A DNA stretch of 64,000 nt from Nitrosopumilus sp. (GCA_965238275.1 OZ250186.1:320001-384000); one strand, 5' to 3'. Shown: positions 34,115-54,072, counted from the stretch's first letter. Numbers and translations: made by a program. Notes: generated from the sequence alone by a model not told the origin.

Positions 34115-34199
34115 CTACAGCAACCAAAAAATAAGACTATTATATATCAATGTCTCCTTTCCCAGCATGACATGCCGTTTGTTGAGTTGTTTATGAACT

Positions 34200-34732: not shown

Positions 34733-34822
34733 ACTATCCTGCATTTCCGCCGTGGACTACAGCACGTCCGACACGTGTATCCATACGACAGTATCTTACC
34801 ATCTGTCAATTTGTCATACATT

Positions 34823-35994: not shown

Positions 35995-36028
35995 ATTATA
36001 AAACTTGGAAAAACAGTGTCTCACAGAA

Positions 36029-36928
36029 ATGACGAAACATCGCGTAGCATGGACGGATGTGGACGTGACCTTCCTCACGGGAAACCATTCCAAAATGACC
36101 GATGCCGAACTGTCCCGGGCACTCAACAGGTCGATCCGCTCGGTATCCCACAAGCGACTGAGGCTCGGACTTGGCAGTGCCAAGCGTGCCGCCTCACCGA
36201 ATGCTTGGTCGGAGAAAGAAGATCAATTCCTCCTGCAAAACCGGCACATGGGGCCGGAGGACGTTGCAAAGACGATCGGAAGAACCAAAGCCGCCGTGGC
36301 GCACAGGAGGAAATCGCTTGGAATGTCAGTCCCAAAGTCGGAGACGGCTTGGAAGGACGATGAGATGCGGTTTTTGAAGGAAAACCCCGAAATACCGACC
36401 GCGACGCTGTCTGAACGACTCGGCAGGACACAAGTAGCGGTGCGGCAGATGAGGCGCAAATGCGGGCTGTGCCGGGAAAAACACCATCCTTGGAGCCAGG
36501 GAGAAGAAGATAATCTGAGAAAGAACATGTCGCTGCAACTAGGCGAACTTTGCAAGCTGTTTCCAAACCGAACACATGCTTCTGTAAACGCCAAGGCCAG
36601 AAAGATGGGCAGGTCGCGTTACAATCGCGTGGGTTACACGGTTACGCCGAACGGGTACATAGAAATCACGGTGAATGGCAGGCGCGTGCTTGAACACGTA
36701 TACGTGATGGAGCAGTACAAGCGCCGCATGCTGAAAAAAGGAGAGATTGTCCACCACATAGACTGCGACAGGAAAAACAACAACCTGAATAACCTCGATC
36801 TGCTACAATCCGACAGCCAGCACCAGGCCACCCACAACTCGTTCAGGAAGCTGCTTAAGCCACTGCTGGATTCCGGCCACGTCGTGTATGATTTTGAGAG
36901 ACACAGGTACGGGGTCGAAAGACTATGA
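36029..36928 (+). CDS. HNH endonuclease with 4 tandem Myb/SANT-like HTH repeats
   Basis: Repeats begin WTDVD, WSEKE, WKDDE, WSQGE; C-terminal EHVYVME...VHHIDCDRKNNNLNNL. Confidence 0.85.
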   Translation: MTKHRVAWTDVDVTFLTGNHSKMTDAELSRALNRSIRSVSHKRLRLGLGSAKRAASPNAWSEKEDQFLLQNRHMGPEDVAKTIGRTKAAVAHRRKSLGMSVPKSETAWKDDEMRFLKENPEIPTATLSERLGRTQVAVRQMRRKCGLCREKHHPWSQGEEDNLRKNMSLQLGELCKLFPNRTHASVNAKARKMGRSRYNRVGYTVTPNGYIEITVNGRRVLEHVYVMEQYKRRMLKKGEIVHHIDCDRKNNNLNNLDLLQSDSQHQATHNSFRKLLKPLLDSGHVVYDFERHRYGVERL

Positions 36929-38229
36929 GCGTAGGCAGGCAGTGGAGCGTGAAGGATCTCGGTTTTCTAAGAATGCACTCAGGCATGCCGCGCAAAGAGC
37001 TTGCCAGCAAACTCAGCCGTACTGAACAGGCCGTAAAGCAGAAACTGCATGAACTCGGACTTTCCGTTTCACATGCATGGAGTCAGGATGAAATAAGATT
37101 CCTTGAAGCGCATCCACGCATGACCGCCGGTGAAATATCAAGGCACATCGACAGATCCGTCCACTCCATATACAGAATGCGCAACGCCCACAACCTGCCG
37201 TCGTCGTACAGCTGGACTAGCGAGGAAGACGACTTTCTCAGGAATAACCTAGGTATGACGGCGGCCGATCTGGGAGAAAAACTAGGCCGGTCGAAAGACC
37301 AAGTGCACAAGAGAAAAAAGAAACTCGGCCTGCCGCCATCTGACATGGCAAAACACTGGACAGCAGAACAGATCAGGTACCTGCGGGAGCATCCGGACAT
37401 GCAGGTAGCCGAGATTGTGAAACAAATCCAAAAGACGGAACACGCGATAAATCACAAACGGAGGGAACTGGGACTGTCACGCAAGACGGTTCACAAAAGA
37501 TGGATCATGGAAGATGACAGATTCCTACGCGAGCACGACGGCGAAGCAGCCAAAGCACTGGCGGAAACAATGGACAGGACGCTGTTCTCCGTGCAGGTGA
37601 GGAGGCAACATCTCGGCCTGACCGTTCCGAAGTCGGAACTGACGTGGAAGGATCATGAGAAGGATACGCTTAGGAAGAACCCGAACGAGCCAGCTACATC
37701 TCTCGCGCAAAGAATCGATCGCAGTCCGGCGGCGGTGCGCAGGGCCCGAAGGCTTGAGGGACTACCGCCGCTCTTGATCCGCAACGAATGGACGGACGAG
37801 GAGATTTTGCTGTTGCTGGACAACCTAGGGATGAAGCGAGCTTACATATACGGAATTCTCCCACACCGCACGAAGGCTTCCGTAGATGGCATGTTGAAGG
37901 AACTCGGCAGGGAACGACAGAACAACAAGGGGTTCACGTACATGACAGGCTACAAGGCGGTATACGTGGACGGAGTACCAGTACCAGAACACCGTATCGT
38001 CATGGAAAAACAGATCGGCCGACACCTGAAACCAGGCGAAAAGGTACACCACATAAACGGCATCAGGAATGACAACAGGCACGAGAATCTGGACTTGTTC
38101 AAGAACCAGTCGGAGCACATGCGGGCAGAGGCGTCTATAAACAAATGCATCCCAAAACTGCTTCAATCCGGAGTCATCATGTACTCCCGCAAGACACACG
38201 AGTACCTCTTAGCAGACGGAACGGCATGA
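36925..38229 (+). CDS. HNH endonuclease with 7 tandem Myb/SANT-like HTH repeats
   Basis: Repeats begin WSVKD, WSQDE, WTSEE, WTAEQ, WIMED, WKDHE, WTDEE; C-terminal EHRIVME...VHHINGIRNDNRHENL; ATGA overlap with upstream paralog. Confidence 0.85.
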   Translation: MSVGRQWSVKDLGFLRMHSGMPRKELASKLSRTEQAVKQKLHELGLSVSHAWSQDEIRFLEAHPRMTAGEISRHIDRSVHSIYRMRNAHNLPSSYSWTSEEDDFLRNNLGMTAADLGEKLGRSKDQVHKRKKKLGLPPSDMAKHWTAEQIRYLREHPDMQVAEIVKQIQKTEHAINHKRRELGLSRKTVHKRWIMEDDRFLREHDGEAAKALAETMDRTLFSVQVRRQHLGLTVPKSELTWKDHEKDTLRKNPNEPATSLAQRIDRSPAAVRRARRLEGLPPLLIRNEWTDEEILLLLDNLGMKRAYIYGILPHRTKASVDGMLKELGRERQNNKGFTYMTGYKAVYVDGVPVPEHRIVMEKQIGRHLKPGEKVHHINGIRNDNRHENLDLFKNQSEHMRAEASINKCIPKLLQSGVIMYSRKTHEYLLADGTA

Positions 38230-38423
38230 TCCACGTGACCGTCACAAGGCTCTGGTAAATTTTGGTGATCTCTGTCGTTTGCTATTCAAAAGCGTGTTTT
38301 TGGATCTTCTCCAGATTCGATCCCGCTGCATTTCATCATAGTGTTCAAAAGTGTGGTGTTTGCAAGGCAGATTCCACATACAACACGCAGGGTCACAACT
38401 ACCACAGAACATGTGTCTTTATT

Positions 38424-38669
38424 TTAGCTGATGGTTTTTGGGCAGCCATTCCTGCTACAGGGAGTTTCTGGCAACTTGCGCTGTTCGCTTATAGCTTTGG
38501 CAAATATTCTAGCTTCATACTCTTCTACAAAATATCCCCAGCCGCCTTGTTCAGACGAATGTTGACCACCACCAATGTCAAGCTTGTGGCTCCCGATTTT
38601 GTGAATAGTGACGTGGGGGTTATGCCGGTTGTAATAAACTGCAAATTTTACTTCTTCATGTCGTCCCAT
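38424..38669 (-). CDS. Small hypothetical protein
   Basis: 81-aa ATG ORF with AT-rich upstream region; His and Cys residues. Confidence 0.5.
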   Translation of the reverse strand: MGRHEEVKFAVYYNRHNPHVTIHKIGSHKLDIGGGQHSSEQGGWGYFVEEYEARIFAKAISEQRKLPETPCSRNGCPKTIS

Positions 38670-38777
38670 GCGTTCGATTAGCCATTCAATAATAAAAATT
38701 TACATAACACTGCCTAAAACTGCATGTGTTTTAGAGAGACTTGGAGTACCATTTGACCCGTTCATAGTGAAAAATTG

Positions 38778-40547
38778 GTAATTGTTTCGCTTTTTGAAGT
38801 ACCCCGGATGGCCTAGCGGGCATCCATGGCGCCGGGAATAAATCTAATGATTTCGTGCTCGGGACGACAAAGCTAGACTGTCGTGATCTAAATGTGAGTG
38901 GGTGCTAGTTCCTTCGAGATAGCAAATGAAGAAACCAGCACACCAGACATGCTTGGAGGTGGAGGAATTTAAGGCAATACACGAGCCCTCCTTACACTTA
39001 CCACAAATCCTTCCTGATGCCGGGGCGTGCATGAAACCAGAATGCAGGTGTTGTCGGTTCTGGACAAGGGTGCTTGGCGATACGATCGGCTTGACAGGCA
39101 AGATCTTGGAGGCTGCTGCCGCCGAAGTTGCAGGCAGGCCAGGCGCCAACTGCAAGGAGATCGAGGACCTGCAGGCACTCGTCTCATCCCTCACAGAGGA
39201 CAACAAGAGGTACGCCAAGGCCAACAGGGAGCTTAACGCCAAGGCCAACAGGATCAACATCCCCACCGTGACCAAGAAAAAGGCAGGCCCAAGGAAGGCC
39301 GGCAGGCCCAAGGGGCAAAAACCCACCATCAACTGCAGGCCAAAACGCGTCGACCGCGTCGAGGAGATCGACTGCAAGGAATGTCCCGACTGTGGCAACG
39401 ACAATCTTTCGGACGTGACTGACAGGTACGATCGCATCGTGACTGTCATGCGCGTCATACTGGAAAACGTCAGGTACGTCATCAAGCGGCGCTGGTGCCG
39501 CGGGTGCAAAAAACAGGTCTCTGGAAGGGTTCCCGGCGCGGCAAAACACGCGCGCCGTTCATCAAACTTTGATGCGGCCATGACGTCCCTGAACATGAAC
39601 GGTTTGTCGCATGCCAGGGCCGCAGAATTTGGCAGTGACGCGTGGGGGCACAAAATCTCGCGCCCGTCTGCATACCGCGGCAAGATCAGGCAGGCAGAGC
39701 GCATGGCACCGGAGCGTGATTCTGTAAGAAAGCGCGTGTTAGAGGCGCCACACCTGAACGCAGACGAATTCCACTGGCCGTTGGGCGGCAAACGCGGCTA
39801 CGGGATAGTGGCCCTGGCAAAAGACGCCTGCCTCGTGGAGGTGACCGGCTCGCGGGGCATCAAGACGCTTTGCCACACACTCCCGGACTACAAGGGAACC
39901 ATAACGCAGGACTCGTATGCAGGATGGCTCCACGTGGGATCGTGCCGCCAGATGTGCGTGTGGCACCAGGAACGCCTGGTGCAAAAGGACGTCCTGACCA
40001 ACCCCAAAGGTGACGTTCCAAAGTTTCTGGACAGGCTGTCGGCAATCCACGATAAGATTTATCGCGCATCCAGAATCGAGGACGGGCACACGAGGATCGT
40101 CGCGGCCCACTGCATAGACGCGGAGCTGCGCGGGCTGATGAACGAACCGTTTGCAGACGATGGGCACGGCACCATCGCCAGACACAAGAAGAGGAACCCC
40201 CGGGAGGGATACTTTATGACCACCTGCCTGCACGTGGACGGCATCGAGCCGGACAACAACGCAGTGGAGAGGGTCAACCGGAGGTTCGTGGCCATAAGGA
40301 GCGACGGGGGCGGAAACCGCTCCCAGAAGGGCATGGATGCCAACTCGATCCTGTTCACGCTGCTGGCAACTGACAGGATCAACGCGAACAGTTTCTTTGA
40401 TCATCTGGTCCGCTCGTCCTCTGGAGACAGTTGAGGCATCATCTGACGGCACGTATGGTGCATCACGGGAAAAAAGATTCCACGGCAAGGGAAAGGCTGC
40501 ACCTGCTCCACTGTTAGGCAGGCCACTTCAAAAAGCGAAACTGTTAC
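38778..40547 (+). mobile_element. IS66-family element (second type); transposase 38926-40434
   Basis: Imperfect TIR gtaattgtttcgctttttgaagt, 8-bp TSD aaaaattg; paralog of 30151-31689. Confidence 0.92.
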
Positions 40548-40572: not shown

Positions 40573-42027
40573 TCAGCCCGGAATCAAATAAGAAGGAGCA
40601 TATCCTTTGGTCGAACCAAGATCCTCATAGATCTGCGCGCGCGGCATACGATCCCACAAGTGGCCCAGCAAGAGTATCGCGCCTTGCGGCCCTGCCAGGA
40701 AGAGGTGCATTTGGTCTGGCCTGTATTTCTGAACGAGTCGACGAATCGAGTCGCGTGTTTCATAAGCCCAGCCTCGGGCATCGGCGGCGTCGCCAATCGC
40801 GTGGTTGCTGGCACCATTTGCGGGACGGATGCAAACGTACTCCCCGACATTAATCTGCTTGTCGTGAATATATGCCAACACATCCGTCGACGGATCAACG
40901 GCCAAAGCGATACCCACAGCAAGATCTTTACCAAATCCCAGAGTCGTAGCGTCCTGCTTGATAGCAACATCAGACAACTCTCCTACAGAAGACCAAACCG
41001 TCTGACCCTGAAATGATGAAACCTGAAAGCCTGCGGTCTTGCTCAGCTCTATGCCTACGGCAAACCAAGTGGGCAAGCGCATGTACCCTCTGACTAGAAC
41101 GTGCGCGTGTCCCTGCGATCGTAATTTCTGTGCCGCCCCCCGGAGTTCTGATCGAAACCGGTCATTCCACAGTGCAGGATTTGACAGCAGACGTCTAACT
41201 CTCGGCTCGTTGCCTGGAAACGAGTCGACCCAGTCAAGGACAATAGTAGCGTTTTCCGGCATAGGGTCACGGTCAATTGCCTGTACAAGAATTGAAGCTG
41301 TCGGTGAATCGCCGGATTGCTTTAGCGGCTCAACCGCTAGCCTCAGCTTGGCAACGGTGATCTCCCTCTTACCCTCAGTTACCCAACCGCGTACGATTCC
41401 CATGCCTCGAGACACCGCATCCTCATCGTTGCGAAGGCCGACCGCAGCCATGAGTGGCCGCACCAACAGCGTCAAATCCTCCTCGGTTTTTCCAAGCATG
41501 AACCGGATGTCATGGAAAAACAGCACCGCTTCCTCCTCGTCGACCATGAGGTGCTCGGCAAGCATGCGGCGAACGTTGCCTTCTTTTGATCTGGGTTTTG
41601 CATATTGCAAGCGACGCGCGACGGTGCGATCACGGCCGTCTATCATGCCCAGCAACGGATCCGCAGCTTGTGGAAGGCGGTTGGTCACCAGAGTTATCTT
41701 GGGTTTGTGCCCGCTCTGGTTGCCTATCCATAGCTTGTGGAACCCTTGGATTATGCTTGGTCCGCCAACCCTGGAAGGCTTAGTGAGCCACTCCATTCCA
41801 GCAGCTTGGCTTGCATCTGCTGAAGACTTGAGTTGGTAGCATTCATATCCACCGTCTTCCATGTACACTGTGACATCATCGGCATTTCCCGCTTTAGGAT
41901 CCTCAATTCCAATTTTGGTTATGCCGCTACCTGCATTAATCGCCCTGATTACTTGAACCCAAGAGAACAGATGCTGATAGTCGTCGCCTCTGATTCGGGC
42001 GCCGCTGGCACTTAGTCCTGTGGTCAT
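40573..42027 (-). CDS. CBASS effector: Cap4-like nuclease fused to SAVED
   Basis: N-terminal GDDYQ...DDV...YQLK; C-terminal HLFLAGPQGAILLLGH...QIYE...Y SAVED pattern. Confidence 0.88.
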   Translation of the reverse strand: MTTGLSASGARIRGDDYQHLFSWVQVIRAINAGSGITKIGIEDPKAGNADDVTVYMEDGGYECYQLKSSADASQAAGMEWLTKPSRVGGPSIIQGFHKLWIGNQSGHKPKITLVTNRLPQAADPLLGMIDGRDRTVARRLQYAKPRSKEGNVRRMLAEHLMVDEEEAVLFFHDIRFMLGKTEEDLTLLVRPLMAAVGLRNDEDAVSRGMGIVRGWVTEGKREITVAKLRLAVEPLKQSGDSPTASILVQAIDRDPMPENATIVLDWVDSFPGNEPRVRRLLSNPALWNDRFRSELRGAAQKLRSQGHAHVLVRGYMRLPTWFAVGIELSKTAGFQVSSFQGQTVWSSVGELSDVAIKQDATTLGFGKDLAVGIALAVDPSTDVLAYIHDKQINVGEYVCIRPANGASNHAIGDAADARGWAYETRDSIRRLVQKYRPDQMHLFLAGPQGAILLLGHLWDRMPRAQIYEDLGSTKGYAPSYLIPG

Positions 42028-42962
42028 GGATTCTGTTTACCACCCATGGAGTCAAACGGTCGGGTCGGCTCCGTCCGGTCAAGCACCGATAAAGCAGTCT
42101 CAAAACTGACAGGTTCGTCCGGAAACGCCTCAAGGAGAAGATTGGGTATGAGGCGTTGGGCGATGTCTGAAAAGGAGTAGCCGTAGTCTTGGCATTTCCC
42201 ATCCGGGCCGGTCAGTCTAGCCAATTCACGGTATTGATCGTCGTTAAAGATGTCATCAAAGGCCCTACGGAACAACGCCTCCCTTTGTTCTGCATTTGGT
42301 CGTTTAAACTCATGGTGAACCGCTGCACGGCGCAGGACTGCCGGATCTAGTGACTTGTAGCGATTGGTGCAAAGTATCACCAAAACAGGCAAACGCTCTC
42401 GCGCAAGACGGTCTATGCCCCTAATCAGCGCGTTGACCCCCGCACGGTCCTCGTGGTGCATCTGCTCAGTATCCCGCGACTCTGCAAGTGCATCTGCCTC
42501 GTCGATCACGAAAACGACCGCCGAAGTGGGTTTACCATGTTGCTCAAATCCACGTCGAGCAGATTCTGCCACTTTGTCAAATGCCTGCGATATCAGGTGG
42601 GTCATCTGACCTACGGTTCCTTGCCCACGGGTAATGAGACTCAAACGCAGGAGAGTCACCTTGATGTCTTCCTCTCTGGCTATAGGACTGCCCAAGCTAT
42701 CCGCAAGTGTTGTCTTTCCCGTACCCACGTCTCCGGAAAACACCATCAGCGGTGAGCGTCGATAAAATTGCTCCACGCATGGCAGGACAGATCCGTGTTT
42801 TTCCTTACTCCATTGTTCTAGCAACTCCGGAACCAAGATAAGACGGGCTTCTTTTAGCAGGACGGCTTTTAGGCGATCCAGCCCAACAAGCATTTTGAAT
42901 TGACTATCTGCATCTACGTCTGGCATCTCTCTAACATCGTCGAACAGATCATGTGAGACCAT
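42024..42962 (-). CDS. cap6: TRIP13/Pch2-like AAA+ ATPase (Cap6)
   Basis: GDVGTGKT, IDEADALA, QMHHEDRAGVNALIRGID, LDPAVLRRAA. Confidence 0.92.
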   Translation of the reverse strand: MVSHDLFDDVREMPDVDADSQFKMLVGLDRLKAVLLKEARLILVPELLEQWSKEKHGSVLPCVEQFYRRSPLMVFSGDVGTGKTTLADSLGSPIAREEDIKVTLLRLSLITRGQGTVGQMTHLISQAFDKVAESARRGFEQHGKPTSAVVFVIDEADALAESRDTEQMHHEDRAGVNALIRGIDRLARERLPVLVILCTNRYKSLDPAVLRRAAVHHEFKRPNAEQREALFRRAFDDIFNDDQYRELARLTGPDGKCQDYGYSFSDIAQRLIPNLLLEAFPDEPVSFETALSVLDRTEPTRPFDSMGGKQNP

Positions 42963-42972
42963 ACAAAAACAC

Positions 42973-43476
42973 CTAGTAGGGACGGAACGTCTGTCGTTGG
43001 GTGCTAACGCCTTGTGAAGAGTAACTTCTGTCGGTCGCCCAGTATCCGTTACCGTTTTGTGGTTCTTGTCCGGGAGTGCGTTTGATGGGAATGCGTGCCT
43101 CGATCTGCTGTTTTTTTACATTTGGTAACGAGCCCCAATTCACGCTATGTGTCAGGAACGAAAACCACACTGAGTTAGAAACATCTGCGCGTGCAAAAAC
43201 GCTACCAGATTTTCCATCCTGTAACGAACCGTCCTGCCGAACTTCATAGCGCAGGGCAACAACTATCTGATCGTTTCGCTTGAACCCATATTCTACTCGT
43301 GCCAAGTAACCCCCGGCCAAAAGTTCGGTCAGCTCTTCATAGTAATCCCATATCAAGGATTCATCTGGTTGTCCGTAATAGGCTAGCATACCTCGGAGAT
43401 CTGCCATTACCTTAGAGGCAATATATTTCGCACCGGTTCTGGTAAACGTGGAACTTGTTGTAAATGTGTTAGTCAT
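42973..43476 (-). CDS. cap7: Bacterial-type HORMA domain protein (Cap7)
   Basis: T/S-rich N-terminus, AKYIASKVMADL, GYLARVEYGF; located between CD-NTase and TRIP13. Confidence 0.88.
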   Translation of the reverse strand: MTNTFTTSSTFTRTGAKYIASKVMADLRGMLAYYGQPDESLIWDYYEELTELLAGGYLARVEYGFKRNDQIVVALRYEVRQDGSLQDGKSGSVFARADVSNSVWFSFLTHSVNWGSLPNVKKQQIEARIPIKRTPGQEPQNGNGYWATDRSYSSQGVSTQRQTFRPY

Positions 43477-43811
43477 GTCTCCCTAACCCCTGAAAGATGA
43501 CCCGAGAATGACTTGCCAAGATTCCACCGCCCTTTCCTTGGTGGTAGCATAAAAAGCCTCGCGTATGGCGTCCGCTGCCTCTTCTGCGGCCTCAACAAGC
43601 GCGGCACGATCATTAACTGAATACCGGTTGGTGACATTGTTATCAGCGTTGACTGGATCGAATACTTCGATGGCGGCTCCCGTAAGGCTTGGAAGGTCGC
43701 TAGGTGGGTAGCAGTCGCCGAATGCCACCCGTTCCTCAAGGTCGGTCTTTACTATGTAACTGAAGAATTTTTCAAGAATTCGCGGATAGTCATTCAATTC
43801 CATGCCAGAAT

Positions 43812-45375
43812 AGAAGATATGCGTAATCCACCCATTTTGCCAACCCGGCCATAAAAAACCGGAAAAATACGGCCTAAAACTAGTCGTGTCTGGTATGTGG
43901 CAAGTCCGTTCACCCCAAAATCCAAAATGACGTGCGCAGCCTTGCAGCACTTCATCGTGCCCTGAATTCTACTTGACCGGAGCTTGGGAGCAGGCCCTGT
44001 CCCAGTCTACTGACGTCTTCCACTGCCCCGGTGGTGGCGGGCCCTTTTCCATGCAGTCCCACAAAAGGTTCAGGTTTACCAGCCCGGTGATCACGTTGAA
44101 CTCCCGGTTGAACTGCGCCGCGTTGCCGTCGTACGGGTCGGCAAGACGCGCGTAGCGCTTGAGCCTGCCTATGGCGTGCTCCACCAACACCCGGGTGGAG
44201 TTGATCCTGTGGTTGTGCTTTTTTTGCTCCGGCGTCAGCGGCGTGTCCCTGGTCTTCTTGTACGGGATCTCCGGCGTGGTGCCGGGCAGGTGGTCTGCGA
44301 TTCCCTGGTAGCCGCGGTCGACGAAGGGGTGGCACCTGTCTGATTCTGGCAGATCCGGATCGTGCATCGCCTCCTCCCACTTTCCAAACGGCATGGGGCG
44401 TTCCTTGAGCAGCGTGATGTCGCCGACTGACCCGACGGTGCTTTTTGATATGCCGATCACCACCCCGTCCCGGTTGGCGTACACGTTGGTATTGTTGGTG
44501 AACTTTTTCTTCTTGCCGGAGTATTTCATGCGCCGGACTGACTTTACAGACGGGCGCTGCACGGGGCAGTGCGTGCCGTCTATGAATATCTCGCCCCCGT
44601 CGGACCCGGGCACGATCTTCTTGAAATCCTCCTTGGTCGGGGCAGCAGCTACCTCCTCGGATATGTTGTCTGCCGTCGGAAGTATTCCTGCCAGCATCGC
44701 ATCCATCACCGGAATGTACCGGGACACGGTGGTCTGGTCTATCCCGAAGAATGCGGCAAGCACGCCTTGGGCGGGGTTGTCCTTTTTGCGGATAAGTGCT
44801 AGGAGCAGTGCGTGTCTCAGGTACAGTTTGCACCGGTTTCCGGGATCGGAGACCCGGGATGCGTTATCGCGGAACAGCGGCATCTGGCCCGAATGCGTCA
44901 GAAACACCTTGGCCCGCTCCAGCATGTACCGGAACTGTTCCCCGTCTGCCAGCGTGACATGGCGGAGCTTGTCCCCGTCGCGTATTATGCCGTCTAGCAC
45001 CTCTAGCAGGTGCAACGCTGGCCCCTTGCCGGGGTTCCAGCCATCGTTCCTGCTCTTCCACAGGCCGCGTTCAAGGCCCAACTCCCTGTCTTTCTGTTCC
45101 AGCTTTTTGTCTTTCTGCTTTAGAATATTTTTTAGGGTTTTGTCTTTCTGTTCCAGCTTTTTGTCTTTCTGTTCCAGCTTTTTGTCTTTCTGTTCCAGCT
45201 TTTTGTCTTTCTGTTCCAGCTTTTTGTCTTTCTGCTTTAGAATATTTTTTAGGCTTCTGTTTTCCTGTTCCAATCTGTGCATGATCTGATCAGGCGAGTC
45301 TGGCATTTGATGTGAGACGCGATCGTGCCTGATCTAAATTTATCGATGTGAACAGGGGGATTACGCATATTTTCT
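43812..45375 (-). mobile_element. IS5/ISL2-like element, copy 2; transposase 43969-45306
   Basis: TIR agaagatatgcgtaatcc / ggattacgcatattttct, 3-bp TSD AAT; close paralog of 26836-28035. Confidence 0.93.
45087..45253 (-). repeat. 21-bp tandem repeats encoding QKDKKLE heptads
   Basis: tgtctttctgttccagctttt repeated, plus a duplicated LKNILKQKDKK block. Confidence 0.9.
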
Positions 45376-46315
45376 AATCGGCCAAGTGGGCCACGAGTAG
45401 TTCCAATAAGAAGGACTTGCATTTGAATGCGGCGTTTTCATCTTTTCGTTGCTTGGCCCACCATTTGACCAAGCGCACAACTTGGGCAAAGTGCTGCGGG
45501 TTGGATGTCTTCCGAACACGGATAAACTTAAGGTGAAGCGGGATGCTGGTAAGGAGCCTCTCACCGGTATACTTGTCTATCAGATATCCATAGTCTTTCT
45601 CATCTCCCTCATAGATGACGGGAACAACATCTACATCCAGTCCGCTTCCTCGGAAATGAATTTTCACACAATGGGGGGAACTCGTATCAAAGTCGCTCGG
45701 ATCCTTTTGTGGGTACGCCTCGCGGAGGCGCTCCCCCACCCACGGCACCACGTCTTTTTCACTACCAGGAGTTTGATCCTTCTTTACATATACTGCGACA
45801 TCAAGGTCGTTGATGGTGCGCAGGGCGGTTCCTTTGGCAACGCTTCCGGCATGCAGCATTTTGACCAACCCGAACCCGGGGTTGTCCGCAATGTGCCGTT
45901 CAAGGATATCGCGGAGGCTGTTCACCTGTTCCCTGTATTTGTGCACGGAATCTTGCGGAAGATTAATTCGTTCTTCTGCGAAGGAAAGTATGTCCGCATG
46001 GGTTATGAATGAGTCTGTCATCTACACTCCTCTCATGCATATAGGATCTTAAGAATGATTCGCTCTAGAGTGTTGTGACGCAGTGCTGGACATATTGTTT
46101 CGCTCATTATCCAGCAAAATCAGGCATGAATTCAGGATAAAATGATCGAAACTTTTTGTCTCCTACTACGCATAATTAGCAAATTGCCAGACATGTCTCT
46201 AGGTAATCGGCTTGGAGGCCACCATCCTGCTCTTGGGCGCTGAACATGTAGTACGTCAGGTTCTGCATGAACCTGAAAGGCAGTCTAGAATGGAGCCCCC
46301 AATCGCCGGAACCGG

Positions 46316-47452
46316 TCATGACGATAAAGCCAGTTCTTTGATCAAATACACGTGTTCCAGCGGGGAGTTCTTGATCATCCTCCTGCTGATCAAGCCGCTA
46401 GGAATCTCCTCTAGGTACTCTTTTCTTCGCGTGCGTGCATCATCCACATCTACGCGTCCTAGCAAGTCCAGATTTCTCATGATGGCGTGCATGTACCCCG
46501 TCTCGTCAGTTCCTGAAGGCGACGGAGATCCCTCCAAGTGCCTTTGGAGGGACTTGGCAAAGAGGAGCATCAGCAACACATCGGTGATGTGGTTAGATTT
46601 TTTATAGGAATAAAGCCTAGAAAGATAGCTCCCCTGAAAGCCATTATAGTGGCTAAGCAGATCCGATGCGACAAGTGCGTTGGTGTCTAGCGGCAAGAAA
46701 CTGCCAAGCGATTGCACTATGCTGGAGATTATGTCGGATACCGTGTAAGGCGGGTCGCGCTTGAAGCGGCCTACCTTGAACCCTGTCAGTTTTTGATACG
46801 AGTCGTAGGCTATCGCGAGATCCTTCGGGTTGGCTTGCCGCAGCAGCGTGGCAATATCGTAGATCTGCTTGACGATCTCGGTACGGTTTTCGGCTTTGAT
46901 CCCCACCGTCCCGATCGCCAAGGACGTGATCTTGTCAGCTATCAAGGTGCCTCTTGACAGTATTGTCATATCCTGGAGTGTCCCAAAATCCAGTATCTGC
47001 GAACCGGCCCGGATACGCTGCGTGTCAAGGTGCAGGTCCGCGCCGCAGAATGCGTCCACCTTCACGCTCTCTTGCCTGCCCAAGCAGGAGTCGTACATTA
47101 TCCTGTATGAGACGAAATTCTCTATCGGAAGGGGTTTTCTGGGAATGATCTTACTACACCGAAGCCCGTCCACGCTGCCATTTATGTCGTTCATGACGCC
47201 TTCGATCTCATCTGCAGAATGGCTGCTGAGGACGTCGATGTCCTTGCTCATGCGTTGTACCATGAAGTTGGGTTGGTGAAACGGCATGCACATCCCGCCC
47301 CTCGTGGTGCAGTGAATCTCTTGGGTGATGTGCTTGTGTATTTCAAAACACATGATGAACTTCTCGACAAGCGGGTCGGCGGGAAACCCGTACTTTTCAG
47401 AAATTCCGAGGATCCTCTCCCTAGTGAGCATCTCCGAGTAGTATAGAGCCAA
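46316..47452 (-). CDS. AbiEii-like nucleotidyltransferase toxin
   Basis: VEK...RGGMC...QRMSKDIDV, VKVD, LIADKITSL, KQIYDI. Confidence 0.82.
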   Translation of the reverse strand: MALYYSEMLTRERILGISEKYGFPADPLVEKFIMCFEIHKHITQEIHCTTRGGMCMPFHQPNFMVQRMSKDIDVLSSHSADEIEGVMNDINGSVDGLRCSKIIPRKPLPIENFVSYRIMYDSCLGRQESVKVDAFCGADLHLDTQRIRAGSQILDFGTLQDMTILSRGTLIADKITSLAIGTVGIKAENRTEIVKQIYDIATLLRQANPKDLAIAYDSYQKLTGFKVGRFKRDPPYTVSDIISSIVQSLGSFLPLDTNALVASDLLSHYNGFQGSYLSRLYSYKKSNHITDVLLMLLFAKSLQRHLEGSPSPSGTDETGYMHAIMRNLDLLGRVDVDDARTRRKEYLEEIPSGLISRRMIKNSPLEHVYLIKELALSS

Positions 47453-47455
47453 AAC

Positions 47456-49336
47456 CTACTCCTCCGGGAGGTACTCCTCGATCTCGTTTAGGATTTGCCT
47501 GCGCCTGGCAAGCGACCGCAATTTTGCGGGTCTTGCCAAGCCGGCATCGAGCAGCTCGTCTAGCACGAGGATCAGATCGTCATGGTAAAGGGGAATCCTA
47601 TCCCGGGTAACCTCAAAGTAGAGGTCCAGCCAAGCCTTCTCCGGCCCGGCCCAAGCAAGGGAAAGCCTCTCCCTGTATTCGCGAATTACGATGAACTTGC
47701 TGTGCTCTGTCCCATACAGCACGGCTGCAAGATCCTGCCTGCTCGGGTTTAGCACGACTGTAAACCCTCCTGCATGATCCGATATGGCCTCAAGCAGGCT
47801 CTGGCCGGCTCCCGGCACCGTATGGATCGTGTATACGATCTTGCCGTGGGTGTTGTGCAGGAACGGCACCAGCGTGGAAAGGCCGGTAAACTGAAAGTCA
47901 TGCTCAAAGGTCTCCTTCAGGTAGTCGTGCAGCTCGACAAGGTCGTTTTGCAAGGAATATCCGGGGAGATGAACCGCCTTTTCCCTCGGGGCACTCTTAC
48001 CGGCATGCCGGGTGAGGCGATCCCTGACAAACTCGTTCAGCATCCTGTTCCTGCGCTCGATGAAGGAGCGGCGTGACGGATCCTCTGCGGCCAATTCGGC
48101 CTCTATGCGAATCAGCCCGACAAGGAACAGCGGGTTCTTGAACAGGTGGAACGCCGGGTTGTTCCTTCCGATGCCGACGCGAACCCCGTTATTTACGGTC
48201 TCGACATCGAAGGTGTCCGAATCGTTGAACTCAAAATCAAAGATTGCGTCCCCCTTCCGCTGGACGAATCTGCCGGCCTCTCGCAGCAGCAACTTTGTGT
48301 TCTCGGAGCTCATTCGGGTGTCCAGAGGCGGGAGGTTGGGGTTCGGGTCCAATGCCAGCACAGATTCAATGTCAGACATGCCCTCTTTCGGGGACGAGGC
48401 CTGCCGCATGATCATCTTCACGACGGCGTCGGCAATGAAGCCGGATGCTGCCTCGCGGTACTCCGGCGACTCGGTCAGGAAGCCGGTCTTGTGGAAGTTG
48501 ACCGGGACGTGATCCAGGGACAGCTCGCCTGCCACCCTTGCGGCATTGGGGTGGAGTTTTATTCCAAACTTGTCAAACGCACTGATCAGCCTTCCGTTGC
48601 GGTACAGGTGTATTCCGTAGTCGCCTTTTATGGAGCGCCTCGCAAGGAGCCCGACCCAGCCAGTCATCCTACCGCCGGCAGTCTCTATGCTTACCGGGTG
48701 CTTCGAGCCGTCCACCAGTTTGGGCAAAGAAGGCTTGCAGGGGCGGGAGTTGACCAGTATCCGAACCTGGCCGCGTTCGATGTACGGCCCGTATCTGATC
48801 CCAAACCTACGGCGGAAGTTTAGTATCTGGTTTGGGTATAACGGCACCTTGATTTTGCTTATCATTATCTGGGTTCCGCGCCAACCTCCTTCCCTGGCAA
48901 TCTTCTCGATTTCAAAGTTGGTCCAGTTTTTAGACGCGTCGTTAAGCCATAGATCCTCGTCGTACCTTGCAGTAAACATAAAACTCGATCCCGGTACCGT
49001 GGTGCGTATGGTAAAGGCCTTTCCAAGGCTCGAGCACGCGCTCTTCAGGCCGAGCCCGAACTGTCCCAGCTTGCCTTTCTTTGTTTCCTTGGCAACAGTC
49101 AGCGCTTCCCTGAGCCCCTCAGAGTCCATCCCGCATCCGTCGTCGGACACCTCAATCTGCCCCAACCTAAAGTGCAAGATGACGCTGATCGTCCCCGTAT
49201 CGTCAAGCCGTGCGTCGATGGCGTTGTCTATCAACTCTGCCACCGCCTGCTCTGTCCTGTATCCGACCAGGCCGAGCTTCTTGATCAGGCTCTTGTCAGG
49301 CGTTATGTCGACTGTTATCTTTGCCATGCTGATCAC
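47456..49336 (-). CDS. GHKL (MORC/MutL-type) ATPase fused to an AbiEi-like C-terminal domain
   Basis: ELIDNAIDA, DDGCGM, GQFGLGLKSA, GTQI, YRNGRLI, NFHKTGF; C-terminal FTGLSTL...GPEKAWLDL. Confidence 0.78.
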   Translation of the reverse strand: MISMAKITVDITPDKSLIKKLGLVGYRTEQAVAELIDNAIDARLDDTGTISVILHFRLGQIEVSDDGCGMDSEGLREALTVAKETKKGKLGQFGLGLKSACSSLGKAFTIRTTVPGSSFMFTARYDEDLWLNDASKNWTNFEIEKIAREGGWRGTQIMISKIKVPLYPNQILNFRRRFGIRYGPYIERGQVRILVNSRPCKPSLPKLVDGSKHPVSIETAGGRMTGWVGLLARRSIKGDYGIHLYRNGRLISAFDKFGIKLHPNAARVAGELSLDHVPVNFHKTGFLTESPEYREAASGFIADAVVKMIMRQASSPKEGMSDIESVLALDPNPNLPPLDTRMSSENTKLLLREAGRFVQRKGDAIFDFEFNDSDTFDVETVNNGVRVGIGRNNPAFHLFKNPLFLVGLIRIEAELAAEDPSRRSFIERRNRMLNEFVRDRLTRHAGKSAPREKAVHLPGYSLQNDLVELHDYLKETFEHDFQFTGLSTLVPFLHNTHGKIVYTIHTVPGAGQSLLEAISDHAGGFTVVLNPSRQDLAAVLYGTEHSKFIVIREYRERLSLAWAGPEKAWLDLYFEVTRDRIPLYHDDLILVLDELLDAGLARPAKLRSLARRRQILNEIEEYLPEE

Positions 49337-49485
49337 TACGTGTTAATATAATATATATTCACAGCTTTTGATCAATCACTATGCAAACGTGGCTGGTTTT
49401 CGTTGGCAAGGACTGCCACCGCCGGCATGTGTGGGCACTCAATCTTGGCGTATGGTGGAACATTTACGTTTGCGGCCAAAAACTG

Positions 49486-49571
49486 CAAAATTATCAGATT
49501 ATCAAAATTTATAAGATTTGCAAAATTTATAAGATTTGCAAAATTTATAAGATTTGCAAAATTATAAGATT
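49486..49571. repeat. 18-bp AT-rich tandem repeat
   Basis: caaaatttataagatttg x3 perfect plus degenerate flanking units. Confidence 0.9.
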
Positions 49572-49800: not shown

Positions 49801-50919
49801 ATGAACCGAGCCAGACATGTAAAACGTGGGGACGAGTTCCTCCGGGATGTCAGCCTATCTGAACTTGAACAGATACGCAGTGAGGAACCTCACGGTAAGG
49901 CCAAAGCCATGCTACAGGCGGCCATACACCGAAAGAAAGGCGAGACCCCGGATGCCATATCAAAGGCCATCGGGGTGGCAACCAGCACCATACATGACTG
50001 GTTGCTGCGGCTGGAGGAAGGCGGCTTGGAGCGCAGGCACGACTGCAAGAGTCCCGGCAGGCCGTGTCGCCTGTCCGACGCACAGAAGGAATCCCTTGAC
50101 GGGGATATCGCCAAGGAGCCCATGGCAAGCGGCTTTTTCCGCGGCACGTGGACGGCCAGACTCGTCGGCCGCCGCATTCTAAACGCGTTTGGGATCCGGT
50201 ACAGCGACAGCGGTGCGCTCAAGCTGACGCGCAGGATGAACTTTTCAGTCAGGGGAGTTCGGCCCGTGCCGTACAACTCGGCCACGGCCGAGGATCTGGC
50301 CGAATACGTGGAGGAGACGATCCGGCAGGCAAGGGAGCATGACAGGAACGGCTACAAGGTAGCGTTCATTGATTTTGCCGGATTTGCCGACTCTCCGGCC
50401 TCCAAGCGCGGCATACGGCGCAGGGGCGGCAGGGACACAGTCAAGACCAACTGCTCCAAAAAGACAGTCAAGGTAACAGGGGCCTTGGGCAAGAGCACGC
50501 TGGACATACAGTTCCACGAGTCTGCCAACACTGAAAGCGTGGCTGCACTTTTGGAATACCTTCGACGGAAGTATGGAAAGATCTACGCGATCATGGACAA
50601 CGCCGGAGCCCACACCAGCAAGGACATGGAGCGGTACGTTGAAGGTACGAAAGGCGACGTGGTTCGGTGGTTTCTGCCCCCGCGCACGCCGCAGCACAAT
50701 CCCATCGAGGTGGAGTGGAGGGAGCTCAAGAGGGCGCTATCTGCAACCTTCTTTGGCGGATTCGACGAACTGCAGAAGAGAATCAGGCAGCTGCTGCGCA
50801 GCAGGGAGGTCGCCATAGTGAGGCTGATCGATTACGTGTTCGAGGCCATCGGCCCACAGAAGGGGCCATGGCAGAAGGCGCGGCGCATACCCGTGGAACC
50901 GCCTTCCTGCACTGCCTGA
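49801..50919 (+). mobile_element. IS630-family transposase (single ORF)
   Basis: HTH, SPGRPCRL, IMDNAGAH, LPPRTPQHNPIEVEW; element ends not resolved. Confidence 0.88.
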
Positions 50920-51215
50920 CATGCATGTAATGCGCGAAGAACAGTTCCGTACCAGGATATCTTGCATCCAGGCCGCCGTCGCCTGCGTCTGCTGCAAACC
51001 TTGCAGTGTCCTGCCTTTCACGCCTTAAACAGAAGATTCCGCGGGATCCGATTCCTGAAATTATCAGACGGGCCATCCTGCTCCCGAGACATGATGCGAT
51101 GCCGATGCCGTCATGCTCATTGGAGTGCCACAATCTGCCATAGATCCAAATCCCATGGGCAGTTTTTCCGAATCTTTAATCCGATTACTATGCGTAGGAT
51201 AAAACAGCATACTTT

Positions 51216-51255
51216 GGAAGGGGCCTGCGACTATAACATGGTATTTTTAGGTTCC
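51216..51255. repeat. att-like junction remnant
   Basis: ggaaggggcctgcgactataacatggtatttttaggttcc aligns without gaps to 7224-7263. Confidence 0.75.
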
Positions 51256-51599
51256 ATCACCAGAATCCACAGTGATTGCAGTCTAGAGGGCTTCGCACCC
51301 ACGGCGGATGCAGATCTACACACATTTCACGAAATAACGACAGATGGCCATCGGGGGCTTACAATACCCCCTTTTTTTTCATGCATGTTGTTTGAAGGTT
51401 ATTTTCTGCGTTAGTCTAAGGAATGATTATGTAACCTCCCCCATGTTTCCGTGCTCAGACCAATGCAGCACGCCAGTATTCTGCATGTTCCAAGGGAACC
51501 TGTTAGATGAACTTAATACACTGCGGAAAACACACGACGTAGTATGTCGGGCAACGCAGCGGTTATCGACAACGAGAAGGTAGTATTTCTAGACCAACT

Positions 51600-51700
51600 C
51601 AAGGAGATTCAGTCTATAATGATGACTTTTTTTAGGTTCCACCGTGTCTGCAAAACATCTCGCGTCAGTCCAGCGACAACCTGTCATAGGTCTAGATAGC
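51600..51700. repeat. att-arm repeat copy
   Basis: 31 nt identical to 34607-34637, then ttaggttccaccgtgtctgcaaaacatctc. Confidence 0.8.
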
Positions 51701-51824
51701 CAACCATGCGACTAGCTGCATGGTAATTTCAGCCGATCAATTGCTTTTTATGTCATTTTGTGGTACATGGTGCATGTTAGAAGGCAGCACGAATCTAACG
51801 GTTGATGCAAAAGCACATGTCAAC

Positions 51825-52160
51825 ATGAAGCGTAACTATCCGGATGAATCCGACGAACATGTGATAGCCAGACTTCTGAGCAACGTTCCCGGCGGGCAGG
51901 CCGTAACCAGGAAACGACTTGACGAGATCAGTGAAGGAACTGCGGAGGCGGGGTTGCACATACTGTGCAACGAGCTTGCAAAGATACGAAAATATCCGGA
52001 CGAGTCATACGGGTCTATCGTGGACAGGATAATACGTCTTGACAAGGAAGAGGACGTTATGACAAGCGAGGATTTGAGGGACATTGAGGAAAGCCTTGCA
52101 GATGCAAGGAACACGCACCCTGCCAGAACAATACACGAGGCACCGACTTCTAGCAGATAG
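51825..52160 (+). CDS. Putative archaeal antitoxin (internally duplicated YPDES motif); start uncertain
   Basis: YPDESDEHVIARLL / YPDESYGSIVDRII and EDLRDIEESLAD; located upstream of RelE. Confidence 0.55.
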   Translation: MKRNYPDESDEHVIARLLSNVPGGQAVTRKRLDEISEGTAEAGLHILCNELAKIRKYPDESYGSIVDRIIRLDKEEDVMTSEDLRDIEESLADARNTHPARTIHEAPTSSR

Positions 52161-52224
52161 CTTGAAAACCTAACGGTTCTGTAGGCATAATCGATTATTA
52201 ATTAAGAGGCATTCATACAGTGGT

Positions 52225-52479
52225 ATGGCTTGGAAACTCGCATGGTTGCCGAGGGCCGAAAGGGAGTTGGAGAAACTGGATCCCGAAATTCAACGGCGCA
52301 TCCGCGACAAGATCGGCGATTGCATTGACAATCCGCATCATTACGCGACACGCCTTACCAATCTTCCGTATTACCGGGTGCGTGTGGGAAAATATCGCAT
52401 AATCTTAGACCTGGACGAGAATATCCGGACAGTCGTGGTCATGAAAATAGATCACAGGGGCAGGGTTTATGACAGATGA
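52225..52479 (+). CDS. RelE/StbE-family toxin
   Basis: AERELEKLD...YRVRVGKYRII...IDHRGRVY. Confidence 0.92.
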   Translation: MAWKLAWLPRAERELEKLDPEIQRRIRDKIGDCIDNPHHYATRLTNLPYYRVRVGKYRIILDLDENIRTVVVMKIDHRGRVYDR

Positions 52480-52494
52480 TGCGTGGGGCAATCA

Positions 52495-52538
52495 GGCGCG
52501 TCCTTTGACCTTTCAATTTTGCCTTTTGCCAACTTCAC
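52495..52538 (-). pseudogene. 5' stub of integrase next to the tRNA
   Basis: GTG-start VKLAKGKIERSKDA, homologous to the starts at 7175 and 10139. Confidence 0.6.
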
Positions 52539-52581
52539 GCCTACTGATACGCGTGGAACCCAGAAAAGTCATGTAAATATG

Positions 52582-52655
52582 TGGACCGGAAGGGATTTGA
52601 ACCCTTGATCCGATGCATGCCATGCACCTATCCTACCAGACTAGACGACCGGCCC
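52582..52655 (-). tRNA. tRNA-Ala(GGC)
   Basis: Cloverleaf GGGCCGG/CCGGTCC with G3:U70, anticodon stem GGTGC/GCATC around GGC, T-arm AAGGG-TTCAAAT-CCCTT. Confidence 0.95.
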
Positions 52656-52718
52656 AAGAATCAGAATTCTGATCGAGTTATGGTTTCAGGAATGGTTATT
52701 AACGTTTAGCGGTTGGCA

Positions 52719-54072
52719 AACTCTGTTTCCTAATTATCGCCAGTCACACCCAACAGGTTCAGAATTAGGCCAGATCAGTTGAATTTGAACATAATATCAA
52801 ACATCTTCAATAGAAAACCGTATTGATCAGAGAGGTGTGCAGACAGTCAGGTTATCGCCATGACTGAAAACACATCCTCTCCAGACAAAACGGGCACGCA
52901 TGAGGCTAAAAAATCTTTCAAATCCAAAGAACGCCGGTTCCAGTACGATGACCGCAGGTACATAGACCGCGGCCAGTTGTGGACGCTCCAGATAAGCCCG
53001 GAGATCCTGACTCAGGGAGTCGAGAAGCTAAACTGCGGGAAGGTAGGCCGCCCGTACGTATTTTCAAACGCGTGCTTTGCAGCAGCATCCCTGTTCAAAA
53101 ACGCCACCGGCATAAGGTACAGGCAGCTCCAGGGTCTGGCAGAGACGATAGTCGGCAAGGAAAACGCGCCCACGTACTCGGCGTTCCAGAAGAGGATGGC
53201 CAAGCTTGGCTGCACTGTTGCAGACAATGATGATGGTAGCGGCACGGCTTCTGCGTGGTTCTCAGACGGCGGCACCCGGGCCGAGATCAAGCTGTTTGCC
53301 TTCGACTCCACTGGACTCAAGCCCACAAGCCGCGGCGACTGGATGACAGAAAAGTGGGGGACCAGGCGGGGCTTCATAAAGCTGCACGTCGGGGTGGATG
53401 CCAAAACCAAAAAGATCTACGCCGTGGCCATAACCGACGACAAGTGCGGGGACTCTCCGCAGTTTGAGGAACTGGTGGGGCAGGCCCTTGCAAATGCAAA
53501 AAAATCACCAAACTCAGACACTTCTGCAGGCACCAAGGCGGCAGCCGACGGCGCGTACGACGCCCAGAAGATCCGCAGGTACTGCGACGAGCAGGGAATC
53601 GAGCCGCTGATTCCCGTCCGCATCGACTTTGCCGGAAAGGCGAACGGGTGCATGCCCCGCAAGGAGGCAGGATTCAGGCAGCTGGGGGACCTGGACTGCA
53701 TGGACAAGACGGCAGAACGCAAGTTTGCAGGCCTCACGCGCGAACAAAAGAGGGAATTCCAGAAGGCGTGGCGCAGGGAGTCAGGGTACAACGACCGGTG
53801 GTCAGTCGAGATTGTATTTTCCACGTTCAAGCGGGTGTTGGGCGAGTGCATAAGCGCGCGCAAGTGGGAGAACGTCAAGGCCGAGATATACGGAAAGGTG
53901 CAGCTGTACAACCAGATGATCGATACTGCAATCGACAACGGGTACGGCACGCCAAGGATCGTGCAAGCCTACAAGCCCGGCCCAAGGACTGCAAGGGAAG
54001 GGGGCAAGACGACGACGTAGGCAGAATTGCACAGACGAGTATCTGTGTCGAGCGTAATTAGGAAACAGAGTT
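52719..54072 (+). mobile_element. IS5-family (IS903-like) element, copy 2; transposase 52860-54020
   Basis: Same 1354-bp length and TIR as 8026-9379; 8-bp TSD ggttggca; protein differs at 2 positions seen. Confidence 0.93.

Follow-up and report, generated by a model that had tools for sequence, protein, structure and literature searches.

A MORC-type ATPase fused to an AbiEi-type antitoxin domain and paired with an AbiEii-family nucleotidyltransferase in Nitrosopumilus

A two-gene locus and its protein domains

We examined a 64,000-nucleotide stretch of a Nitrosopumilus sp. genome (GCA_965238275.1, OZ250186.1:320001-384000; hereafter the window, in which positions are counted from the first letter) and focused on two adjoining open reading frames (ORFs) on its minus strand. 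The first, at 47456..49336, is a fusion gene whose product joins a predicted MORC-type GHKL+S5 ATPase, a middle domain, and a C-terminal domain (CTD) of AbiEi type. The second, at 46316..47452, starts at a TTG and encodes a 378-amino-acid (aa) nucleotidyltransferase (NTase) that Pfam and PADLOC place in the AbiEii/DUF1814 family and that is the predicted toxin. The known part of this arrangement is the AbiE/MenAT-like toxin with its neutralizing domain; the new part is the MORC ATPase in place of a winged helix-turn-helix (wHTH) domain. An earlier note on this DNA, made from the sequence alone, had called the pair a possibly undescribed system, and we retain that description: the fusion was not found described in the literature searched, and no PADLOC model spans it.

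The fusion ORF encodes 626 aa if begun at its GTG, as the earlier note had counted, though the ATG at 49327, which gives 623 aa, is probably the start, because an identical 623-aa database protein (P0003) and the N-termini of homologues agree with it. The database search with the fusion protein returned P0003 and 392 homologues. The stop codon of the fusion gene (TAG, 47456-47458) is followed by GTT and then by the TTG of the NTase at 47452. The spacer is therefore 3 nucleotides (nt), and the first NTase base is the fourth nt past the stop, which is the distance of 4 nt that had been reported. An AT-rich, TATA-box-like stretch read at 49344..49359 (minus strand), ~25 nt 5' of the ATG, is a possible archaeal promoter, which would yield a leaderless mRNA.

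The AbiEi-type CTD spans residues ~458 to 626 (47459..47965, minus strand) and was characterized by modeling, structure search, hhalign, and BLASTP. The two motifs from which an AbiEi-like domain had first been proposed, FTGLSTL and GPEKAWLDL, are present and are among the best-conserved columns of the domain. A model of residues 440 to 626, built from 30 sequences (pLDDT, 86.5; pTM, 0.84), was compared with 48,161 chains by a structure search independent of Foldseek. The top chain was Streptococcus agalactiae AbiEi (6y8q_A; Z, 8.9; root mean square deviation, 3.1 Å; 121 residues aligned), which was also the only chain with a Z of at least 8, and model residues 25 to 186 aligned with 6y8q_A residues 57 to 193, the C-terminal domain of AbiEi. 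The AbiEi homologue Rv2827c (1zel) reached a Z of 6.0 and ranked second in Foldseek with an E value of 0.078. Thus, the Foldseek search that the earlier note had proposed for this domain gave no PDB match at an E value of ≤0.001, but AbiEi came first in the wider search.

Profile comparisons connected the domain to a named family. The same region in three relatives scored 30.4, 34.8, and 26.3 bits against DUF6577 (PF20217; cut-off, 27.8), two of the three lying above the cut-off, and these alignments began at profile positions 35 to 39. A CTD-profile search of 1.84 billion representatives yielded 161 clusters at an E value of ≤0.001. Among the best 150 of these 161 clusters, 36 (26 full-length, 10 in shorter pieces) had the N-terminal MORC region or the middle region and 114 had neither and were mostly 200 to 310 aa long. 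We aligned 90 of these stand-alone short proteins (200 to 340 aa; alignment A4), of which 71 matched DUF6577 and 25 matched the wHTH family AbiEi_4; when the A4 profile was searched against PDB sequences, it matched only wHTH proteins, through its N-terminus. Compared by hhalign, the fusion CTDs and A4 were related with a probability of 99.9% (E value, 2.4e-36) over A4 positions 78 to 244 of 278, i.e., the C-terminal two-thirds, all of it past the wHTH. With BLASTP, the CTD of the window was 28% identical across 149 residues (E value, 2e-19) to an AbiEi_4+DUF6577 protein whose genome belongs to the same order. Further, at 7 of 10 stand-alone loci the NTase directly downstream matched the family profile of the window NTase (E values, 1e-13 to 4e-47).

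We assign the CTD to the AbiEi type because its fold best matches that of AbiEi and because its stand-alone wHTH+DUF6577 relatives are linked to it by profile and adjoin NTases of the same family. By these comparisons, DUF6577 corresponds to the C-terminal part in a family of AbiEi-type antitoxins, and the fusion protein carries that part without the wHTH. The absence of the wHTH was borne out, since homology to DUF6577 proteins begins only past their wHTH and residues 1 to 457, where AbiE and MenAT antitoxins would have that domain, consist of the GHKL+S5 module and the middle domain. The DUF6577 unit, including its wHTH part, was also found fused to other N-terminal regions in two protein clusters: in P0250 (698 aa), it accompanies an HsdS-like N-terminal region with a weak match to the type I specificity subunit (Methylase_S), and in P0232 (609 aa), it follows ~400 residues without a family match.

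The head of the fusion protein begins with a GHKL (Bergerat-fold) ATPase domain at residues ~1 to 165 (48842..49336, minus strand). Pfam HATPase_c_3 matched residues 26 to 125 (E value, 5.6e-18), and the top PDB sequence match of the fusion protein was human MORC4 (7k7t; E value, 5.2e-8). All Bergerat motifs are present, as claimed, and E34, N38, D65, G69, G91, G94, G96, and G154-T155 are invariant across 34 fusion homologues down to 45% identity. An S5-fold transducer-like domain follows at residues ~170 to 300 (48437..48829, minus strand), recognized from Foldseek and from invariant columns that include the motif N280-F-x-K283-T-G-F; its lysine K283 (in NFHKTGF) is invariant in all 34 homologues. 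A full-length AlphaFold model built from 34 homologues (pLDDT, 79; pTM, 0.48) aligned in Foldseek with the ATPase modules of MORC2, MORC3, and MORC4 over 370 to 443 columns at E values of ~1e-13. SMCHD1 and TRAP1/Hsp90 were also matched at ~1e-13, with an overall range of 340 to 440 columns. The S5-like region of the earlier note was thus recovered by structure and by its lysine, with Pfam Morc6_S5 matching below threshold and in three relatives only (23.9 to 25.2 bits; cut-off, 26.2).

The middle region, at residues ~301 to 457 (47966..48436, minus strand), was modeled as helices, a four-strand sheet (356 to 390), a long helical hairpin (402 to 446), and a low-confidence linker (443 to 457). 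It had no Pfam match, and in the ESM Atlas residues 300 to 450 returned only unnamed clusters, at 0.93, without a common Pfam family. NCBIfam matched the fusion protein to MzaB, sacsin, and MutL at the N-terminal GHKL only and far below the cut-offs; the equivalog score for MzaB of the MZA system was 44.1 bits against a cut-off of 850, over residues 18 to 142 only, and a PADLOC match to MzaB (E value, 1.7e-9) was confined to the same stretch. Pfam scans of the fusion protein revealed no nuclease, helicase, or DNA-binding domain. We conclude that its N-terminal part is a MORC-type GHKL+S5 ATPase that is predicted to be catalytically competent.

The product of the second gene had been described as an AbiEii-like nucleotidyltransferase, and both Pfam (AbiEii; E value, 1.3e-11; 45.3 bits, cut-off 22.5) and PADLOC (AbiEii; E value, 5.6e-18) returned that family; NCBIfam gave no match to the NTase. 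In an alignment of 21 NTases (A3, from which the sequence of locus L016 was left out due to internal stops and counted as a broken NTase), G52, G53, R67, S69, D71, D73, D173, K174, K195, D199, and H288 are invariant, as is the whole motif set GG, R-x-S-x-D-x-D, DK, and K-x3-D. The active-site stretch R67-M-S69-K70-D71-I-D73 is encoded at 47234..47254 (minus strand). Its R67, S69, K70, and D73 are spaced as R76, S78, and K79 of MenT3 (PMC11375011) and D82 (title of PDB 6j7n), and S69 is the predicted auto-phosphorylation site; in MenT3, S78 is reported as the serine whose antitoxin-induced auto-phosphorylation inactivates the toxin (PMC11375011). Searched against PDB sequences, the A3 profile gave no match at an E value of ≤10. 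The protein is thus, by its motifs, a DUF1814/AbiEii nucleotidyltransferase with a complete catalytic set and a predicted toxin.

We also predicted a complex of the NTase with the CTD. The score was 0.52 (runs, 0.57, 0.43, and 0.52), against 0.00 for the best of three controls; the runs shared at least 90% of their contacts, and the pLDDT of the partner was at least 82. Of 157 solved complexes, 116 attained the mark used, as did 2 of 215 mismatched pairs; with scores of 0.60 or under, only 18 of the 157 solved complexes attained it, along with both mismatches. Because a similar AbiEi:AbiEii complex is reported to have been solved, the pass may reflect likeness only, and we count the predicted complex as weak support.

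Recurrence of the pair and its genomic surroundings

The earlier note had suggested a search for the same fusion and gene pair. We collected 39 loci from species-representative genomes, of which 38 are titled as Nitrosopumilaceae, Nitrosopumilus, Cenarchaeum, Thaumarchaeota, or Nitrososphaera metagenome-assembled genomes (MAGs) and one as Dehalococcoidia. Thirty-four had a full-length fusion gene with downstream DNA and were counted. The other five were set aside, L003 and L026 because their sequence stops within the gene, L008 because it is truncated, and L031 and L040 because only remnants are left. An intact NTase lies directly downstream of the fusion gene in 22 of the 34 loci, a broken one in 6 (L004, L006, L013, L016, L021, and L024), and none in 6 (L007, L011, L018, L032, L033, and L039). 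The pairing is not due to chance, as it is seen at 28 of the 34 related loci when the 6 with a broken NTase are included. In the Nitrosopumilaceae locus L007, the place of the NTase directly after the intact fusion gene is taken by an ORF of 375 aa (7873-9000) that has a class I methyltransferase domain (Methyltransf_31; E value, 7e-10). In L006 (7937-10535) and in a further genome (G538:C2:506428-508922), an insertion of ~1.4 kb interrupts the NTase between profile positions ~107 and 166, and the upstream fusion gene is intact.

We then surveyed 301 genomes of the family to which the window belongs, counting the CTD at an E value of ≤1e-10. The CTD occurred in 27 genomes, which span 9 of 27 genera and include 5 of the 37 genomes of the same genus, a single genome having as many as 5 copies; the NTase occurred in 24 genomes. 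Most NTase places (29 of 35) were within ~70 nt of a CTD place. Among the others, one belonged to an adjacent gene that is interrupted, being its second half; a partial CTD lay 1.7 kb away from another; and two were at contig edges. The remaining two were orphans, both of them broken, and no intact orphan NTase occurred in this sample. Conversely, 16 of 45 CTD places had no adjoining NTase. The NTase is thus rarely alone and the CTD often is, an asymmetry that would follow from a dependence of the NTase on the fusion protein. Every strong match to the ATPase-plus-middle region lay in a frame that runs on into the CTD. We also looked in the 301 genomes for close relatives of the ATPase module that lack the CTD and found none; other frames of 510 to 625 aa gave only GHKL-level matches (E values, 1e-9 to 1e-5). 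The fusion gene is present three to five times in each of four genomes (G530, G545, G136, and G508), with some of the copies clustered within ~80 kb, for instance at 804-882 kb of G530:C2.

A quick maximum-likelihood tree of 30 NTases separated the 23 partnered with fusion proteins from the 7 partnered with stand-alone antitoxins by a single branch (SH-aLRT, 99), a topology that is compatible with a single origin of the fusion. The sole bacterial locus that we found, on a Dehalococcoidia MAG contig (L027, 5995-9003), encodes a fusion protein ~60% identical to that of the window, and its NTase branches beside those of the window and L023 within the archaeal clade; this nesting suggests transfer between domains. 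As judged from adjacency and from the tree, the two genes are inherited together, and their patchy, multicopy spread in Nitrosopumilaceae together with the Dehalococcoidia copy points to a mobile conflict element.

In the window, the pair sits in a stretch dense in insertion sequences (ISs), with transposases of the Pfam families IS66, DDE_Tnp_4, DDE_3, and DDE_Tnp_1. Transposase genes lie at 26836-28035, 28277-29764, 30151-31689, 31809-33224, 34896-35933, 38926-40434, 43969-45306, 49801-50919, and 52860-54020; those at 26836-40434 and 49801-54020 comprise three further IS66-family, two further DDE_Tnp_4, one DDE_3, and one DDE_Tnp_1 genes. Between the fusion gene and the DDE_3 transposase gene, ~150 to 240 nt 5' of the fusion-gene start, an 18-nt unit (TGCAAAATTTATAAGATT; 90% matches) is repeated five times in tandem at 49484-49571; this could be a regulatory array or the remnant of an IS end. 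Two HNH-endonuclease proteins are encoded at 36005-36928 and 36925-38229, the latter with several helix-turn-helix repeats. Farther along, 51720-52655 holds a ParE-family toxin gene (52225-52479; Pfam E value, 1.1e-11), preceded by a 146-aa ORF without a family that may be its antitoxin, and a tRNA gene at 52582-52655 on the minus strand.

Directly downstream of the pair and on the same strand lies a type III cyclic-oligonucleotide-based antiphage signaling system (CBASS; 40573-46021, minus strand) with cyclase, HORMA, TRIP13, and SAVED-endonuclease genes. The SAVED-endonuclease effector is encoded at 40573-42027, TRIP13 at 42024-42962, and HORMA at 42973-43476, all on the minus strand. The cyclase is in two parts on that strand, an N-terminal part at 45374-46021 (profile positions 4 to 217) and a C-terminal part inside 43483-43950 (positions 213 to 323), separated by an IS of ~1.58 kb with 30-nt inverted ends at 43803-43832 and 45355-45384 and the transposase gene at 43969-45306. 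Because this IS splits the cyclase gene, the CBASS of the window is probably inactive. The earlier note had placed the pair directly upstream of CBASS and in the same orientation; the placement is right, but with the cyclase split and no cyclase found by PADLOC among 140 neighbor ORFs of 18 related loci, we regard the adjacency as incidental. On the same two observations, we do not regard CBASS and the pair as one system. The link of MORC proteins to restriction-modification, helicase, or nuclease genes was not seen either: none adjoins the pair in the window, and the 140 neighbor ORFs include one mREase_IV match and one helicase match.

A proposed mode of action and its alternatives

We lean, with a little more confidence than doubt, toward reading the pair as a toxin-antitoxin operon of the AbiE/MenAT (abortive-infection) type whose antitoxin lost its wHTH and gained a MORC ATPase. 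In the family, MenT toxins modify the acceptor ends of tRNAs (PMC11375011; bioRxiv 10.64898/2026.01.19.700257; PMC7450476; PMC10435456), and the C-terminal domain of S. agalactiae AbiEi alone is reported to suffice for neutralization of its toxin (PMC3985639). AbiEi and MenA3 are described as binding the toxin and inducing its auto-phosphorylation via a conserved loop, a mechanism that replaces the earlier idea of gated release of a sequestered toxin (PMC11375011; bioRxiv 10.64898/2026.01.19.700257). By analogy with this biochemistry, the NTase would arrest growth by adding nucleotides to tRNA 3' ends, and docking of the fused CTD would lead the NTase to phosphorylate S69 of its own active site and so be switched off. 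The ATPase head may dimerize and go through ATP cycles as other MORC/GHKL clamps do, DNA being the probable site, and could couple a cellular or invader-derived signal to continued silencing of the toxin by the CTD, so that the antitoxin itself would be the sensor. In this way, the ATPase may gate toxin release. A specific version, in which invading DNA or a viral protein drives ATP-dependent dimerization of the head, the fused AbiEi domain stops inducing auto-phosphorylation of the NTase, and the tRNA-modifying toxin becomes active, is put forward tentatively, as a doubtful but specific proposal.

It is important to note that several observations weigh against this reading. NTase-fold chains also matched the CTD model (Z, 5.3 to 6.7), which means that the AbiEi score is partly due to a shared fold. 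The CTD of the window and the C-terminal half matched no Pfam family at E values up to 10, and the CTD profile found no solved AbiEi among PDB sequences, with a single chance-level match to SMG-9; thus, the AbiEi link of the CTD consists of the fold and the DUF6577 profile bridge. The AbiE system of S. agalactiae is reported to have given no protection against 32 coliphages in Escherichia coli (bioRxiv 10.64898/2026.01.19.700257), and a defense role is therefore not universal in the AbiE family. The known autoregulatory circuit is absent without a wHTH. Moreover, at 12 of the 34 loci the fusion gene is intact but no intact NTase accompanies it, so the fusion protein may have a function of its own. 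The defense context is modest, with 13 of the 140 neighbor ORFs (at 10 of 18 loci) matching PADLOC at an E value of ≤1e-8, several of them generic ATPases or helicases and the count having no background rate. Finally, toxicity, neutralization, phosphorylation, ATPase activity, and the trigger are all predicted functions only.

Some of these points would also fit a plain addiction or stabilization toxin-antitoxin system, in which the MORC module stands in for the wHTH in DNA binding, dimerization, or antitoxin stability, senses no infection, and the system mainly stabilizes mobile or island DNA. The IS-dense surroundings (IS66, DDE_Tnp_4, DDE_3, and DDE_Tnp_1) with their ParE toxin, the presence of up to five copies in some genomes, and the broken toxin genes that are common beside intact antitoxin-like genes, as in decaying toxin-antitoxin loci, all agree with such a role, as do the reported stabilization of a plasmid by AbiE (PMC3985639) and the lack of phage protection by S. 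agalactiae AbiE. We nevertheless consider it unlikely, given that an ATPase of ~450 residues whose catalytic residues are all invariant in 34 sequences down to 45% identity would be costly for mere dimerization or DNA binding and that the ATPase was never shed in the 301 genomes, where strong matches to the module are always continuous with the CTD. The loci without a partner raise a different possibility, namely that the MORC-CTD protein is the main actor, e.g., a DNA clamp or compaction factor on foreign DNA, and the NTase an accessory or regulator. Besides the 12 loci without an intact NTase, the 16 of 45 CTD places that lack an NTase, the methyltransferase-domain ORF in the NTase position of L007, and the association of prokaryotic MORCs with restriction-modification contexts (PMC2292703) speak for it. 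It is made quite improbable by the lack of a detected nuclease, helicase, or DNA-binding domain in the fusion protein, by the relatives of the CTD, which are antitoxins of the same NTase subfamily, and by the NTase itself, which retains every catalytic residue and the regulatory serine.

GHKL folds include kinases, such as histidine kinases and SpoIIAB-type serine kinases, and the GHKL domain could in principle be a protein kinase that phosphorylates S69 of the NTase directly, with the CTD as docking site only. Phosphorylation of the equivalent serine neutralizes MenT3, and MenA3 was at first proposed to be a kinase (PMC11375011). GHKL+S5 is an ATPase architecture, however, and the best structural matches (MORC2/3/4, SMCHD1, and Hsp90/TRAP1) include no kinase; further, the toxin phosphorylates itself in the systems studied, and the stand-alone relatives, judging by their architecture, neutralize without a GHKL domain. 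We therefore give direct phosphorylation by the GHKL domain very little weight and retain the AbiE/MenAT-type operon with a MORC-bearing antitoxin as the reading that best accounts for the pair.

Significance and relation to known systems

Our literature search, for which subscription journals and the supplement of Iyer et al. 2008 on MORC architectures and neighborhoods were outside the scope, found, among the papers listed, no publication that combines AbiEii, DUF1814, COG5340, or COG2253 with GHKL or MORC proteins, and DUF6577 (PF20217) was not mentioned in the literature searched. The sole overlap of DUF1814/COG5340/COG2253 with GHKL/MORC was PMC3632139, in the retrieved text of which MORC occurs only in the reference list. 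No such fusion appears in the passages retrieved from a survey of archaeal immunity (PMC12988326), the Tiamat GHL preprint, or a paper on sponge Thaumarchaeota (PMC7848895), and an AbiE-family module is reported in the passages of the last only from sponge-associated genomes.

For the Pfam family DUF6577, our results suggest a function as the neutralizing domain of an AbiEi-type antitoxin family, one that can be moved onto other heads: a MORC ATPase here and an HsdS-like or other N-terminal region elsewhere. The roles of prokaryotic MORCs have mostly been inferred from gene neighborhoods, and a two-gene system with growth arrest as its read-out would make the trigger of such an ATPase testable. 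For work on AbiE and MenAT, the fusion would be a natural experiment on how antitoxin-induced auto-phosphorylation of a toxin can be regulated. If the ATPase does gate the toxin, the pair would be the first type VII toxin-antitoxin system with an ATPase as its gate and would offer, with only two genes, a minimal model of what the MORC ATPases of prokaryotes sense in immunity. In ammonia-oxidizing archaea, the defense repertoire is poorly known, and the module points to a mobile conflict element there.

The closest known systems are compared here at the level of architecture and motifs. AbiE (AbiEi-AbiEii of S. agalactiae and Lactococcus; formerly type IV and now proposed as type VII) is likewise bicistronic with the antitoxin gene first, its toxin is a DUF1814/AbiEii NTase with the same motif set, and the CTD of its antitoxin has the same fold (Z of 8.9 to 6y8q). 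The differences lie in the antitoxin, which in AbiE has a wHTH for autorepression and here has ~457 residues of MORC-type ATPase and middle domain instead, in the CTD of the window, which has no direct sequence match to solved AbiEi, and in the phospho-acceptor, which is predicted to be a serine here and is T65 in AbiEii (bioRxiv 10.64898/2026.01.19.700257). In the last respect, the pair is closer to MenA3-MenT3 of Mycobacterium tuberculosis (Rv1044-Rv1045, TakA-TglT), with which it shares an AbiEi-family antitoxin and the R-x-S-K-D-x-D stretch, the serine of which corresponds in position to MenT3 S78; MenA3 acts by inducing auto-phosphorylation of the toxin. MenA3, however, is a small two-domain protein without an ATPase, and the window NTase profile matches no PDB chain by sequence. 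The stand-alone wHTH+DUF6577 proteins in archaeal genomes of the same phylum have a homologous CTD and a partner NTase of the same profile family, but they keep the wHTH (AbiEi_4 in 25 of 90), are 200 to 340 aa long, and have NTases on the other side of the tree branch.

Triggered control of a toxin is also known outside this family. In PARIS (AriA-AriB) and in fused sensor-antitoxin systems such as CapRel, an NTPase or antitoxin-like module holds the toxin until a trigger arrives, a concept that the pair would share. PARIS combines the ABC-type ATPase AriA with the Toprim nuclease effector AriB, and the pair differs in having a GHKL ATPase and an NTase toxin. The earlier note's comparison with PARIS therefore holds as an analogy and not as homology, neither protein having a match to AriA or AriB in PADLOC at an E value of ≤0.01. 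On the side of the ATPase, the prokaryotic MORC and paraMORC proteins (Iyer, Abhiman, and Aravind 2008) have the same GHKL+S5 module with all ATP-binding motifs and a similarly patchy, mobile distribution. The partners described for them are of restriction-modification, helicase, and nuclease types (PMC2292703; Tiamat preprint), whereas the ATPase of the pair is connected by its fused antitoxin domain to an NTase toxin.

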